Positions 1 through 4,708 of a stretch of 44,935 bases of DNA are shown here, one piece after another (the stretch's first letter is position 1; every line of letters begins with the position of its first letter). The position numbers and the translations under genes are program-made. The notes below the pieces were generated by a model. It worked only from the letters and a program-made list of their open reading frames with translations, did not search any database and had not been told where the DNA came from. This DNA comes from a virus. Its lineage: Duplodnaviria; Heunggongvirae; Uroviricota; Caudoviricetes. Where the stretch lies: IMG/VR virus record IMGVR_UViG_643348551_000004. One strand, written 5' to 3'.

Positions 1-1164
1 TTACGCCTTCTTTATATCCTCCATAATTCCAGAGTGGGACATATTTGGGACATTATCACCAAAAATGTCGTCTATTTTCCTCGCATGCTCTGTCAAATGA
101 TTAGGCGCAAGGTGAGCATACCTACGAACCATTTCTATGGACTCCCATCCGCCCATTTCCTGAAGCACTGATAATGGGACGCCTGACTGAATCAGCCAGC
201 TTGCCCAGGTATGTCTGAGGTCATGGAAACGGAAATCTTCAATTCCTGCACGACGACAAGCTGATAGCCATGATGTCTTGCTGTCGATGCGCATCTTCCT
301 GACCGCAGGCGTTGATGTTCCATCTGCTCGCTTAGCCGCCTTGGTATGTACAAACACCCATTTGTGATGCTTGCCTATTTGATCACGCAACACTTTACAG
401 GCGGTATCGTTCAGCGCCACACCAATGGCGCGGTTTGATTTGCTCTCTTCTGGATTCACCCAGGCAACTCGTCGCTGCATGTCGATTTGTTGCCATTCCA
501 GATTTATGATGTTCGACTTTCTCAGACCAGTTGCCAGCGCAAACTTGACGACAGATTTCAGTGGTTCGGGGCACTCATCAATAAGGCGTTTTGCTTCCTC
601 CTTTTCCAGCCATCTGACTCGCTTGTTTCTGACCGCTGGTATCTTGATGACAGGCGCTTTTTCCAGCCACTTCCAGTCGCGTTCTGCAGCACGGAGAATG
701 GCCTTTATCATGGCAAGATGCTTTGCCTTTGTCTGAGTTGATACTGGCTTTGGTTCATAAACAGGCAGTTCTTTACCTTTCCTGATGGCGGCCTGAACTT
801 TCTGTTTCCATATTTCTTTCGTCTTTCTGTTATGCATTCTGCTTACAGCAGAGTAAATCTTTGCCTCCGAGATATCTTTAAGCCTTATACCCTCAAAATG
901 TTCAAGCCAGAACTCAATCCGGCTTTTATCTGAATCGAGAGATTTTTTATCAGCTTTTTCCTCAAGCCATCTTAGGCAGGCCTCTTCAAAAGTGACATCA
1001 GGTAAATCCCCTAGCTTTTCTACTCGCCAGAGTTCTGCTTTTCGCTTGTCGTGCAACTCCTGAGCTTGCCGCTTGTCCTTTGTGCCAAGAGATTCCTTAG
1101 TTCGTTTCCCGCCCGGGAGCGAATACGAGGCATACCATATTTCATTTCTGCGGAAGAGTGACAT
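1..1164 (-). CDS. intD: Tyrosine integrase, DLP12 IntD type (387 aa)
   Basis: Full-length ORF. C-terminal catalytic motifs are [10 protein letters not shown] and VRRYAHL (R..HxxR..Y). The sequence matches K-12 IntD as I recall it. Confidence 0.93.
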
Positions 1165-1391
1165 TTTCTTTCCTCTGTTATGCCATCACCCGCGCTCACC
1201 TTGATAGTATGCAGCGGAGACTGAAGCGCCGCAATGCAGGCTTGTCGCGTTGTGAGGTAAGGAGATTTTGGTTTAGTGGGGTCTTTGCGTGTTGCCTGTA
1301 GGCGGCCTGTTCGTATCCAGTTGGTAGCGGTAGGTCTGGATATCTTGAGAAACTGACAGGCCTCATCGAGTGTGAGGCTGTATGATTCCAT
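1020..1391 (-). CDS. xis: Excisionase-like HTH protein (start taken at MESYSL; overlaps int by about 145 nt)
   Basis: ATG at 1391 is preceded by AGAGGT. The segment [26 protein letters not shown] looks like a Xis/AlpA-type HTH. It sits immediately upstream of int. The 3' extent is uncertain because the frame runs deep into int. Confidence 0.6.
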
Positions 1392-1641
1392 GGTTACCTC
1401 TGCTTTTTGAACGCATGTCACGTAACTTCTTAATGTGTTCTGCCGTTTCGATCTCTTCTGCTATCCGATCTGCATCAGCTTTATTCACAGGTTCAAAGTC
1501 ATGATTAAAGCGGAACATGCTGGCGATACATGTTCTGCCTTTTCGGATGTAGTGAACTTTGTTGTGGGTAGAACGCAGGATTTTGCAGGGAGTGCCGTGG
1601 TGGTCGACGTACCAGGTGTTAGGAAAAATGATTCTGAACAT
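1363..1641 (-). CDS. Small prophage protein of unknown function (92 aa; possibly DUF4222-like)
   Basis: ORF with a good SD (GAGGTG, 5 nt, then ATG). It is co-oriented with xis/int. The family assignment is from memory only. Confidence 0.55.
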   Translation of the reverse strand: MFRIIFPNTWYVDHHGTPCKILRSTHNKVHYIRKGRTCIASMFRFNHDFEPVNKADADRIAEEIETAEHIKKLRDMRSKSRGNHGIIQPHTR

Positions 1642-1906
1642 TTTTACACCTCAATTGGACGATGTTGAAATTTGCTGCTTTGAGGCCATCACAGTCCCCA
1701 TTGTTTGTTCTTAAGTTCGATCTCCTCCTGCAACTTGCACAAGTCCGACAACCCTGAACGGCCAGGCGTCTTCGTTCATCTATCGGATCGCCACACTCAC
1801 AACAATGAGTGGCAGATATAGCCTGGTGGTTCAGACGACGCATTTTTATTGCTGTATTGCGCTGTAATTCTTCGATTTCTGATGCTGAATCAATGATGTC
1901 TGCCAT
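1619..1906 (-). CDS. TraR/DksA-family C4 zinc-finger protein (95 aa as read)
   Basis: The motif CCECGDPIDERRR...CRTCASC is a CxxC-N17-CxxC pattern typical of phage TraR-like proteins. The tail after the last Cys looks frame-shifted (see findings). Confidence 0.65.
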   Translation of the reverse strand: MADIIDSASEIEELQRNTAIKMRRLNHQAISATHCCECGDPIDERRRLAVQGCRTCASCRRRSNLRTNNGDCDGLKAANFNIVQLRCKNVQNHFS

Positions 1907-1954
1907 CTTCCATTAATCTCTGAATTGTTGGTTAATACGCTTGAGGGTGAATGC

Positions 1955-1982
1955 GAATAATAAAAAAGGAGCCTGTAGCTCC
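1955..1982 (-). terminator. Possible intrinsic terminator (minus strand)
   Basis: Read on the minus strand it is GGAGC-TACAG-GCTCC followed by TTTTTTATTATT. The stem is short (5 bp), so this is weak. Confidence 0.35.
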
Positions 1983-2274
1983 CTGATGATTTTGCTTTTC
2001 ATGTTCATCGCTCCTTAAAGATGCCGTTTAACATGCCGATCGCCAGGCTTAAATGAGTCGGTGTGAATCCCTCAGCGTTACCGTTTCGCGGTGCTTCTTC
2101 AGTACGCTACGGCAAATGTTATTGATGCTCCTGTCTGGTGACAGCCATCGGGCTTGTATTATGTATAAGTTCTGATAAAAGCCTCCGATATATTAAATTT
2201 AAATAACGAAATTCATCTTCTTGATAAGTTGTGATAGCATCATTAAAAGTTTCAGTTCGTTGAGCAGGGATTAC

Positions 2275-2853
2275 ATGGTAAATCAGCAACAGCAACAGAT
2301 TAACGAAAATCTAAAAATTGAGGCAATCCGTTGGTATCAGAAGCTGCAGGAGATTACTTATCTTGAAGCAGGACAACACATGCGGGCTTTAAATCAGCTC
2401 ATGTGGCAAATCCCTAGTTTCGTAATTGCTGTCAATGGTGGGTTGTGGTATGCAACAACACTGGCAAATGAAAGTTCCCTATGGATTATCTTTGCAGTGT
2501 TAGCATTGTTTGATTTCACAACAATGATTACACTTTATCGCTTAAGGTCTTTAATTGGTTCGAAAATAGCACTACAAAAAAACATTGAAGATCCTTCAAA
2601 AAACTATATTTTAAATGAAATTACTAGAGACGCTGGATTTAAATTGCCCTCTAGCTATGATAATAAGGAAACTGGTTACATAGTAGTGTCGTGCTGGGCA
2701 GTAATGCTTATTGTTTGCTTCTTTGTTAATATTGCTGGAGTATATCATCCAAACTTGTTTTCAAAAGACATTTCACATAATACATACAAAGCAACAATTA
2801 AAAATATTGAGTCAGGATTATTTATCGAAGCAAAATCAGGATTATCAAAGTGA
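2275..2853 (+). CDS. Predicted 3-TM membrane protein with an N-terminal poly-Q, unknown function (192 aa from MVNQQQQQ)
   Basis: ATG at 2275 follows AGGGA. Hydrophobic spans are IPSFVIAVNGGLWYATTLA, LWIIFAVLALFDFTTMITLY and YIVVSCWAVMLIVCFFVNIAGVY. The region is AT-rich and on the strand opposite its neighbours. Confidence 0.7.
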   Translation: MVNQQQQQINENLKIEAIRWYQKLQEITYLEAGQHMRALNQLMWQIPSFVIAVNGGLWYATTLANESSLWIIFAVLALFDFTTMITLYRLRSLIGSKIALQKNIEDPSKNYILNEITRDAGFKLPSSYDNKETGYIVVSCWAVMLIVCFFVNIAGVYHPNLFSKDISHNTYKATIKNIESGLFIEAKSGLSK

Positions 2854-3452
2854 CTTCGTGGAAGTTTTATGACAATAATGCTGATCGCTTATTTGCCGAT
2901 TATATATCACTTGATTTTTACTCTATCTTTCAGGATGTTGAAGAGTTTATTTTACAATCTAAGGGTGTCTCTTTGGATGTCGGTTCAGGTTCCGGCCGTG
3001 ATGCTGCTGCGTTAGATGAATTAGGTTATAAAGTAATAGCTGTTGAACCAAGTGAAAAGATGCGAAATTTGGCATCTTCATATTATAAATCTAACCATAT
3101 TATATGGTTAGATGATTCATTGCCTTTTCTTCATAGTGTTAAAGCAATGAATCTAAAGTTCGACCTTATTTTAGTCAGTGCTGTATGGATGCATCTTTCA
3201 AAAAAAGAGCAAAAAATCTCACTAGAGACGCTAACTGATCTTTTAACATTGAATGGGAGAATGATAATTACATTGCGCTTAGGACCTCCCGAACCAGATA
3301 GAAACATTAACGTTGTTAATACTGAGGAACTTCTTGAGTTAGCGTCTCAGTTAGGTCTGAAAACATTGCGAGTTACGTCAATAAATAAAGATAGTTTTCA
3401 ACGTAACCAGATAACTTGGCAGAAAGTTGTATTATCAAAAAATAATGAGTAA
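2850..3452 (+). CDS. Class I SAM-dependent methyltransferase (200 aa, small-molecule/TehB-like size)
   Basis: Motif I is LDVGSGSGRDAAAL, an acidic post-I is AVEPS, and LILVSAVWMHL follows. The GTG start overlaps the upstream stop (GTGA), which suggests translational coupling. Confidence 0.8.
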   Translation: MTSWKFYDNNADRLFADYISLDFYSIFQDVEEFILQSKGVSLDVGSGSGRDAAALDELGYKVIAVEPSEKMRNLASSYYKSNHIIWLDDSLPFLHSVKAMNLKFDLILVSAVWMHLSKKEQKISLETLTDLLTLNGRMIITLRLGPPEPDRNINVVNTEELLELASQLGLKTLRVTSINKDSFQRNQITWQKVVLSKNNE

Positions 3453-3463
3453 ATAACTTAGTA

Positions 3464-4708
3464 TTATTCGCACAGACCGTAGCGTGAAGAGCAAACCTCT
3501 ATATCGAGACTTGCTTTTACAAGATCGTAGACCTTGCCACCGCGCCCTGTTTTTGCCCACTCTACGACTTCATAAACACCCGGAGAATTAAGATCTCCAC
3601 GAGGACCATAAAATCCTGACCAGTCGATGTGTTGCACATCAGGTTTTAGCCCAAAAAGTTGAATATTTCGACCAAGTGGCAGATTGAACTGTTTCATCCA
3701 GCGTTGGCTTATCTCTCCTACGCTCATCCAGTGTACCCATCTACTAGCAAGGCGTACCTTCAACTCCCATTGTTTGTGCTTTTTGATGTGCTCTGGCCAG
3801 CGCGCAGCCGTCTCTGCAATTTCCTCTTTGTTGCATAGCACGCAATTCATGCAGCCAACACGAGACGCACCTTGCATATAAAGTGGATTTGGCTTAATTC
3901 CGAAATATTTGTGAACTGCGAATACGTCCTCAGCCGTCCATTTGTGGAGCGGCAGGAAGTTGTAGAGAAAATCGGCGTCGCGCATATCGCGGGAAAACCT
4001 CTCATATCCAGCGCGCTTAGAGGACTCATCCGCGCGAACACCAGACCATTGTACGATAACATCGCCAGCATCAAGGAGCGGCTTTATGGCTGCGTCGAAA
4101 GCTATCTGAATTTTCAGTTCGTCTGTACAGAATCGGTCGCGCAGCATAGGGAACTTGCCATGCAGAAGGGAGCAATCCAAAAAGCTATTACCGGATGGGT
4201 GCATAACGGAAAGCGCAGCATCAAGAGCAGTTTCGAACTCAATTCCCCAGCGTTCTGCTGTGCGCTTCCAGGCTTGCCCGAATTTGGTGTCAGAACGTGC
4301 GAGGGAAGGCATGACTATGCCACGGTATGCTCCCATGCGGATCATCTGTCGTTTAGACCAGTTTTTTTGCAGATAAATTCGTCGTTTGGCAAAATCTTCT
4401 TCAGTGTAAATCCGCTTCACAACCTGCACAGGGCTACAACCGATCTGCTCATGAATGCTCCTGGCGAATTCGACAGTTAGATTATGCTCATTATCCGTGT
4501 CTGCCATAACAGCATGTACCTGTTTGCCGAATAATGTGTGCGCCACTGCGAGTGTGGCAGTGCTGTCTTTTCCTGCTGAATAATTCACGATTATCTTATG
4601 ATCATTAGGGATGCGAAATTCATTTATATATCTGTTGTAGGACTCTTCTATTTCGCGAATTTTCTTGCTGATGTCTGTTGGGACAATAATTATTGCTGCC
4701 TCGTTCAT
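3464..4708 (-). CDS. PP-loop ATP-pyrophosphatase / PAPS-reductase-family protein (414 aa)
   Basis: The PP-loop is NYSAGKDSTATL. Cys clusters are GCMNCVLC and the C-terminal VCSSRYGLCE. The SD is GGGAGGCGG, and the start overlaps the upstream orf60a-like stop (ATGA). Confidence 0.8.
   Translation of the reverse strand: MNEAAIIIVPTDISKKIREIEESYNRYINEFRIPNDHKIIVNYSAGKDSTATLAVAHTLFGKQVHAVMADTDNEHNLTVEFARSIHEQIGCSPVQVVKRIYTEEDFAKRRIYLQKNWSKRQMIRMGAYRGIVMPSLARSDTKFGQAWKRTAERWGIEFETALDAALSVMHPSGNSFLDCSLLHGKFPMLRDRFCTDELKIQIAFDAAIKPLLDAGDVIVQWSGVRADESSKRAGYERFSRDMRDADFLYNFLPLHKWTAEDVFAVHKYFGIKPNPLYMQGASRVGCMNCVLCNKEEIAETAARWPEHIKKHKQWELKVRLASRWVHWMSVGEISQRWMKQFNLPLGRNIQLFGLKPDVQHIDWSGFYGPRGDLNSPGVYEVVEWAKTGRGGKVYDLVKASLDIEVCSSRYGLCE

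Follow-up and report, generated by a model that had tools for sequence, protein, structure and literature searches.

What is the AT-rich pair of genes that a lambdoid prophage carries antisense to its own early-left operon, and what might it do there? We took up this question for the IMG/VR virus record IMGVR_UViG_643348551_000004, whose entire stretch of 44,935 nucleotides we refer to as the window. The two genes encode a small membrane protein with three hydrophobic helices (TM, 2275-2853) and a class I S-adenosylmethionine (SAM)-dependent methyltransferase (MT, 2850-3452), and together they form an obligate, co-inherited and translationally coupled pair that is sometimes fused into a single protein. 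As far as gene content and homology tell, the pair belongs to an undescribed, widely distributed module of a methyltransferase and an effector, the phage version of which is a three-gene unit with an enzyme gene similar to DndC and SspD of the phosphorothioation (PT) systems. Tentatively, and granting it somewhat less than an even chance, we read the cassette as the phage-borne form of a conserved PT-type self/non-self conflict module with a membrane effector.

This lambdoid prophage is, at about 99% identity, close to Escherichia phage phi458; over positions 1900-3500 the figure is 99.3%, and the phi458 record labels the cassette region only as 'hypothetical proteins'. Both genes lie on the plus strand. 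The minus strand carries all of the surrounding genes, namely int, DUF4222, TraR/DksA, a PAPS-reductase-like gene (referred to as PAPS-like from here on), DUF1317, exo, bet and gam. TM and MT are joined by a GTGA start/stop overlap at 2850-2853, and the G+C content is 0.347 in each of them and 0.30-0.36 in sliding windows, compared to 0.508 for the window. An earlier note on this DNA, made from the letters alone, had described the plus-strand pair within the otherwise minus-strand region from int to pL, the GTGA linkage, a composition of about 30% G+C and below that of the flanks, a poly-Q start and three hydrophobic helices in the first product, a class I SAM-methyltransferase with LDVGSGSGRDAAAL as the second, and an end 11 bp from the convergent PAPS-reductase-like gene. 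Gene calls, computed helix positions, Pfam matches and structure prediction agree with that description, as do the measured composition and the position of the two stops.

The two genes occur together well beyond the window. A search seeded with the TM protein gave 38 metagenome loci. In 31 of them MT lies directly downstream of the TM gene or overlaps it; a contig end interrupts four, and three hold distant TM relatives with other partners. Two of these relatives are fused to an RNase_T/DEDD exonuclease (L140 468-1607 and L144 4200-5480), the second fusion following a giant DndC-like open reading frame (ORF) of about 1200 aa (3-3611), and in L143 a PLD-like ORF comes after the distant TM relative. 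Similarly, in IMG/VR contigs seeded with MT the TM gene precedes MT wherever the sequence suffices, and the homolog lists of the two proteins have contigs of Serratia, Citrobacter, Enterobacter, Klebsiella and Microvirgula in common. Cassette copies that have diverged to 40-65% amino acid identity retain the gene order. Fusions of TM and MT in a single ORF are found in L137, L141 and L146, and such fusions account for 12 of the best 150 representatives of the TM family at 50% identity.

The earlier note had also called the cassette autonomous and had treated the PAPS-like gene as a mere boundary. The antisense orientation stands; the autonomy does not, and in this lineage the supposed boundary is a linked third gene. 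It lies at 3464-4708 on the minus strand and encodes a PP-loop protein of 414 aa from the DndC/SspD/BrxP family (Pfam PAPS_reduct 6.8e-21; PADLOC SspD 6e-19, BrxP 4e-16 and DndC 6e-9; phrog_424 7e-66), with an SAGKDS PP-loop and the cysteine cluster CMNCVLC (CxxCxxC). Within the early-left operon the gene has the orientation of exo-bet-gam, and in every checked copy of the window's phage subfamily it is adjacent to TM-MT and convergent with it. In the window, the stops of MT and the PAPS-like gene are separated by a junction of 11 bp (3453-3463), in which a hairpin scan detected no terminator. PAPS-like partners in viral and metagenome contigs are 68-85% identical, and in L104-L106, L115 and L116 the partner is a 32%-identical homolog of the P2/186 type, still convergent.

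The same linkage is seen in complete genomes of Escherichia coli. The 28 genomes with a PAPS-like gene of at least 99% identity are the same 28 that carry the cassette, and in them the block adjoins exo. Fifteen further genomes have a 74%-identical PAPS-like gene, and the one inspected, EC5, has TM-MT convergent with it across the same 11-bp junction, even though identity to the TM and MT of the window is only about 61%. In EC5 the block occupies the pR/nin region, with ren/DUF4752 on one side and DUF1367/ninE on the other. Throughout the window's lineage the PAPS-like gene runs in the direction of the phage early operon, and TM-MT lies antisense to that operon. Since adjacency and the 11-bp junction are kept across sequence divergence and different phage positions, we conclude that the three genes move as a block. 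The PAPS-like family phrog_424, for which we found no described function, is also common without MT in temperate phages, within their early operons and at about 35% identity, as in 186, P2-like phages, phiE125 and Riah, Burkholderia phages among them.

Outside enteric phages, TM-MT homologs adjoin dnd and ssp genes. A metagenome-assembled genome of the Moraxellaceae has dndB, dndC, dndD, dndE, TM and MT in one operon (Pfam DndB 3e-138, DndE 1.6e-16), and in the isolate Microvirgula sp. AG722 dndBCDE is divergent from TM-MT. Dnd partner genes stand beside TM-MT homologs in L042, L171, L124, L137, L141 and L145; dndC and dndD adjoin the pair in the last four of these, and dndB overlaps a TM-MT fusion in L141 and L147. 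Ssp-like partners are found in L006, L122, L134, L138 and L142. Three of them (L006, L122 and L134) have SspB (PDB 6juf, 1.5e-23) and an SspC-like protein of about 1100 aa, L006 with a PAPS-like gene in addition, and L142 has genes for SspC-like, PAPS-like and NOV_C proteins, TM and MT in a single operon. Among TM-seeded loci that reach 4 kb or more, 16 of 23 have a PT-family gene, as do all three loci of the TM type among 80 genome loci seeded with MT. The PT partner is thus frequent and not universal, and because some phage and environmental loci have no PT gene we regard the TM-MT pair as the core unit. In the window a DndC/SspD-family PP-loop gene is adjacent to the pair (3464-4708), and neither DndD with DndE nor SspB with SspC is found between int and gam. 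The cassette proteins have no PADLOC or Pfam match to the effectors of PT systems (SspE and DndI with DUF262 and DUF1524, DndFGH, PbeABCD, or nucleases joining a sulfur-binding domain (SBD) to HNH).

The wider MT family is dominated by another kind of partner. Scanning one genome per species gave at least 579 confirmed matches to MT, of which the best 80 loci were examined. About 58 of these 80 encode fusions of 570-600 aa, in which an N-terminal MT is followed by a C-terminal region of about 370 aa with an HNH_4 domain (MT-HNH). In Vibrio a separate, overlapping downstream gene carries HNH_2, one Alteromonas locus has another HNH, and one Marinobacterium locus a PLD-ResIII helicase. The N-terminus of the Vibrio operon partner matches the sulfur-binding domain of PDB 8h0l, 'SBDHga1' (6.8e-27), and its C-terminus the HNH of PDB 6yex (3e-30). 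This SBD-HNH partner lies at 6591-7724 in L069 and recurs in L056, L083 and L035 (Vibrio and Alteromonas); with reference 80 of PMC10853773, we take it to have the architecture of ScoMcrA-type, phosphorothioate-reading nucleases. The C-terminal region of the MT-HNH fusions, by comparison, yields HNH_4 only in Pfam and Cas9-type HNH only in a PDB profile search, and hhalign detects no similarity between the middle region of the fusions and the SBD region from Vibrio.

The neighbourhoods of MT-HNH genes are highly variable, in the manner of defence islands and mobile elements, with Dcm-like methyltransferases, SauUSI-like PLD-helicases, P4-type integrases, AbiEi, NERD and transposases as recurrent neighbours. 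A Dcm-type cytosine-5 methyltransferase, often divergent, adjoins MT-HNH in eight loci (among them L021, L030, L032, L048, L051, L054 and L058; Marinobacter and others), and the SauUSI-like PLD-helicase recurs in six. Because the same methyltransferase is wired elsewhere to HNH, SBD-HNH and PLD-helicase nucleases, the TM protein can be said to hold the effector position in the pair. A conserved enzyme with interchangeable nuclease and membrane partners is the pattern of a conflict system. The phage pair itself was also considered as a fused restriction-modification (R-M) enzyme, which we rejected: it has no nuclease, no target-recognition domain and no DNA methyltransferase motif.

The MT gene (2850-3452, plus strand, GTG start) encodes 200 aa that match the generic Pfam families Methyltransf_11 (1.3e-9), Methyltransf_25, Methyltransf_23 and Methyltransf_12, and the AlphaFold 2 (AF2) model is a confident class I fold with a pLDDT of 94.8. 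Among solved folds MT comes closest, at TM-scores of 0.6-0.7, to small-molecule and protein N-terminal methyltransferases, with no DNA methyltransferase among these neighbours. The SAM-binding residues D43, G45, G47, G49, E66 and D89 do not vary, and neither do Y7, Y18, R50, D51, W113, H115, R143, R151, D181, R185 and W190; these invariant residues are identical across the stand-alone and the fused architectures of the family, which is further marked by the motifs WLDDSLP, SAVWMH and TLRLGP. Searches of Pfam, NCBIfam, PHROGs and PADLOC gave generic methyltransferase matches only and reached no curated family, and neither the family libraries nor the fold search placed MT in a housekeeping family of known function.

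Several more specific identities were tried and rejected. For a DNA amino- or C5-methyltransferase of the R-M type, motif IV after strand 4 should read (S/D/N)PP(Y/F/W) or PCQ; here it is the invariant SAVWMH, the protein has no domain beyond its 200 aa, and there are no matches to N6_Mtase, N6_N4 or DNA_methylase in Pfam. The best PADLOC match (7e-15) is Mad2, the predicted N6 DNA methyltransferase of the eight-gene MADS system (bioRxiv 10.1101/2023.03.30.534895). Only the Rossmann core aligns, over profile positions 290-446 of 492, and unlike MADS the cassette is surrounded by phage genes with no mad1-8 and its MT lacks the (D/N)PP(Y/F) motif. TehB and TPMT provide the only non-generic family likenesses (23-30 bits for TehB, and up to 25 bits for TPMT in relatives). 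MT shares with them a class I fold of about 200 aa, a GxGxGR(D/N) SAM loop and weak Pfam matches, and differs in its own invariant motifs and a wholly different genomic context. The Pfam TehB match, 23 bits at a cut-off of 20.4, is partial and covers profile positions 29-113 of 193, and the NCBIfam equivalogs PRK11207, TIGR00477 and PRK12335 score 18-24 bits against cut-offs of 218-303, so that identity with TehB is rejected.

This bears on a proposal of the earlier note, in which the cassette serves as lysogenic-conversion cargo that modifies an envelope or metabolite target, with a TehB-like resistance or metabolite methyltransferase and a membrane partner. The small-molecule character of the fold neighbours, the Pfam TehB match just over its cut-off, and a position and AT-richness typical of morons all speak for such a role. 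The large shortfall from the equivalog cut-offs speaks against it, and the coupling to nucleases and to dnd and ssp genes throughout the family would have no rationale there. As the same methyltransferase is usually tied to HNH or PLD-helicase nucleases and TM-MT adjoins dnd/ssp clusters, we consider it very unlikely. The suggestion made alongside it, that of exclusion or a toxin/immunity pair, fits the evidence.

Another alternative keeps the tie to sulfur and dispenses with an effector. Here the PAPS-like enzyme would thiolate DNA or RNA and MT would S-methylate the thio group, or erase or convert the phosphorothioate, with TM as an anchor; the outcome would be anti-restriction or a marking of phage DNA. 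The tight co-inheritance of PAPS-like and MT would suit such a pathway, and so would the likeness of MT to chalcogen and thiol methyltransferases and its three invariant arginines, which point to an anionic substrate, for instance a (thio)phosphate. Convergent orientation in different operons, however, argues against co-expression. An HNH fusion in most family members would not be expected of a biosynthetic methyltransferase, nor would TM relatives fused to exonucleases, and many TM-MT and MT-HNH loci have no PP-loop enzyme. On balance, a two-step modification of this kind seems rather improbable. Speculatively, the arginines and the TehB/TPMT likeness are compatible with an MT that reads or S-methylates thiophosphate.

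The gene for the TM protein (2275-2853, plus strand), for which PGAP calls the identical ORF and start, encodes a predicted inner-membrane protein of 192 aa that starts with MVNQQQQQ. The protein has a poly-Q N-terminus, a conserved cytosolic helix, EAGQHMRALNQLMWQIPS, and hydrophobic helices at about residues 44-64, 68-88 and 134-156, and the C-terminus is a short beta-hairpin. The motifs NGGLWY in the first transmembrane helix, RLRxLIG after the second and CW in the third are sharply conserved. Homologs fall into 68 clusters by direct search and 223 by profile search at E<=1e-3. Pfam, PHROG, NCBIfam and PADLOC returned no family match, with DUF1512 (E=0.032) under the cut-off, and no Pfam or PADLOC profile of known membrane effector domains, SLATT among them, matched either. 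Comparison with the C-terminal region of the MT-HNH proteins revealed no similarity. The AF2 model is helical with a pLDDT of 74. Poly-Q is encoded by an in-frame (CAGCAA)n repeat at 2284-2298 (plus strand, found by TRF), whose length varies among otherwise near-identical E. coli prophages, with 5, 7, 13 or 15 glutamines (L001 2336-, L003/L004 6116-).

For the reading that we favour, the PT-type conflict module, a role in anti-phage defence would follow from context: the swapping of effectors, the island-like neighbourhoods of relatives and the position as prophage cargo. The mechanism may be pictured as follows. In the lysogen, where the early operon is repressed, a promoter of its own would drive transcription of the AT-rich cassette in the antisense direction, and the products of the cassette would form a membrane-anchored MT-TM complex. 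MT would be the sensing or catalytic subunit, reading or acting on a sulfur mark or a related anionic ligand, and TM the output that damages or depolarises the membrane, so that a superinfecting phage is aborted through abortive infection or superinfection exclusion. Expression of the PAPS-like gene along with the lytic early genes would provide the cognate DNA mark, much as M does for R when an R-M pair is convergent, and read-through transcription from this gene could silence the cassette by antisense RNA during the phage's own lytic growth.

A number of observations weigh against this reading. The phage has a lone gene for a DndC/SspD-like enzyme, without DndDE or SspBC. That gene and TM-MT are convergent and probably differ in timing, which is awkward for a simple pair of modification and effector. 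A phage subfamily with a TM protein of 219 aa, from Klebsiella aerogenes and related hosts, has no PAPS-like gene, and several environmental loci (L119, and others within L127-L136) have no PT gene within 5 kb. Among the 77 MT-seeded loci that are not of the TM type, mostly MT-HNH fusions, a PT-family gene is present in only three. The fold neighbours of MT are small-molecule and protein methyltransferases rather than nucleic-acid ones, and fold searches with the TM protein returned generic helical bundles with no recognisable pore or effector fold. Finally, a consensus scan of 2160-2275, where the earlier note had proposed to map a promoter, detected no strong sigma-70 site. The only candidate there is an extended -10, TGaTAGCAT, at 2232-2240 on the plus strand, proposed by us from its conservation in Enterobacter-type copies and not picked up by the scan.

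Some of these points would be met by a generic prophage abortive-infection (Abi) or toxin-antitoxin pair without any tie to PT, in which TM is a membrane toxin and MT a regulator, antitoxin or sensor, for example one that responds to a phage protein or to the SAM level. That the pair adjoins dnd, ssp and PAPS-like genes would then reflect only the clustering of defence genes in islands and moron slots. The Klebsiella-type prophages, which have TM-MT beside NACHT and PD-(D/E)xK genes and no PT gene, speak for this explanation, together with the environmental loci just mentioned, the mostly island-like contexts of MT-HNH without PT genes, and the recurrence of a HipA-like kinase as a neighbour. 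Co-location in islands, however, accounts less well for the co-oriented operons dndBCDE-TM-MT and SspC-like-PAPS-NOV_C-TM-MT or for the overlap of dndB with a TM-MT fusion, all of which are tighter than such clustering. It also has to contend with a three-gene block that keeps its 11-bp junction over 40% divergence and at different phage positions, and with a PT-reading SBD-HNH as the operon partner of MT in Vibrio. We judge a generic pair to be unlikely.

The loci behind this comparison have features of their own. Cassettes with the 219-aa TM subtype are found in K. aerogenes-type prophages (8001-9271 in L169 and L170, 8001-9272 in L172), where they lie antisense between lambda-P and nin genes with a divergent HTH_73 gene; the NACHT and PD-(D/E)xK genes adjoin the copies in L169 and L170. 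In one environmental clade (L127 3479-4915, L129 1106-2371, L131 3648-4913) the gene next upstream of TM-MT encodes the HipA-like kinase (PDB 7ab4, 6e-9), and two genomes (L025 and L047) have such a kinase gene near MT-HNH. Several environmental loci combine this upstream kinase with the lack of any PT gene within 5 kb. The kinase may represent an additional partner or a neighbour of the toxin-antitoxin kind.

The PT-type reading can be sharpened into a minimal phage PT immunity unit. A lone DndC/SspD-like enzyme would mark DNA with sulfur, and MT would read or S-methylate the phosphorothioate and thereby gate TM, or HNH in bacteria, to kill the cell or cut DNA. In this specific form we think the proposal improbable, though not strikingly so. 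If true, MT would be without precedent among methyltransferases in acting on or sensing a modification of the DNA backbone, and TM would be the first effector of a PT system to reside in the membrane.

Of 5426 complete E. coli genomes, 28 carry the cassette in intact form, always in a prophage, at the two attachment sites tRNA-Arg/intD and ybhC, and it occurs in only one of 50,697 phage records. Between the E. coli copies nearly all changes are synonymous, apart from the length of (CAGCAA)n. With regard to composition, TM and MT have 34-40% G+C in all enteric phage copies compared to 47-54% in the adjacent PAPS-like gene (the window and 10 homologous phage loci), a steady split inside one co-inherited block. 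Recent transfer was considered as the sole cause of the AT-richness and rejected, because the low G+C persists in copies that have diverged to about 40% identity.

The left flank, seen earlier as debris with a terminator-like hairpin on the minus strand, has that character on closer inspection. The hairpin lies at 1966-1984 (minus strand, hairpin scan), and a frameshifted, ZapA-like pseudogene remnant at about 2006-2190 on the minus strand could be mapped from the RefSeq annotation of the 99.9%-identical FORC_041 prophage. Likeness to other lambdoid phages stops near 2125, other phage records matching only query positions 1-226 of 1900-3500, and the remnant is, on this alignment, the left border of the variable region. 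Nearer to the cassette, a block about 35-75 nt upstream of the TM ATG is kept between the window and Enterobacter-type copies. The near-identical FORC_041 prophage also has, in a part of its early-left operon outside the window, a gene for a Ser/Thr protein kinase (L002 11391-12437). According to a study cited in PMC11662687, phages escape DndFGH by means of a phage Ser/Thr/Tyr protein kinase.

How does the module compare with known systems? Lambda RexAB is the type of the prophage membrane cassette for abortive infection and exclusion. Like it, the pair studied here is a two-gene cassette that is probably expressed in the lysogen and encodes a small membrane protein with several passes; it resides in a lambdoid prophage, outside the lytic operons or antisense to them. 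Unlike RexAB, the partner is a SAM methyltransferase, a PP-loop gene is linked, and there is no relationship in sequence or fold. Compared to ScoMcrA-type SBD-HNH enzymes, which are PT-dependent type IV enzymes, the likeness is found in the relatives, with an MT operonic with SBD-HNH in Vibrio and MT-HNH fusions for most of the family, whereas the window has neither nuclease nor SBD.

The closest organisational parallel is with PT defence, in which modification is combined with a separate effector, as in SspABCD-SspE, DndBCDE-DndFGH and IscS-DndBCDE-DndI (PMC11662687, PMC9646914 and PMC8092258). As in these systems, a DndC/SspD-family gene or a whole dnd/ssp cluster stands beside a small non-homologous module in the place of the effector, with an R-M-like linkage that includes convergent pairs. 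Their effectors, however, are nucleases and NTPases (DUF262 with DUF1524, DndFGH, HKD-helicase), and here the module consists of a class I SAM methyltransferase and a protein with three transmembrane helices. In this context, a comparative survey (PMC10853773) reports that most Dnd modification clusters are without DndFGH and proposes other neighbouring genes as the real effectors.

That the pair did not look like any described phage system agrees with the curated family and defence libraries and with the literature searched. Term searches returned no passage with the TM-MT pair from the comparative survey of nucleases around Dnd clusters (PMC10853773), the DndI paper (PMC11662687) or the survey of BREX type 4 (PMC12839542). 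The accessions WP_000205067 and WP_000248037 were not found in the text and supplements of DefensePredictor, nor was the pair in the literature searched on phi458, domain-centric defence discovery, integron defence cassettes and BREX, Dnd and Ssp.

The combination of a TM protein and a SAM methyltransferase is thus a compact and undescribed candidate effector for PT systems, built on an enzyme that is common to at least 579 species-representative matches, its MT-HNH relatives. The cultivable E. coli phage phi458 holds the module and a lone DndC/SspD-like gene within about 2.5 kb and offers a tractable system. Work with this phage could settle whether a single PP-loop enzyme thiolates DNA and what role a small-molecule-type methyltransferase plays in a DNA-modification system, and it could show how temperate phages use such modules antisense to their own lytic operons.

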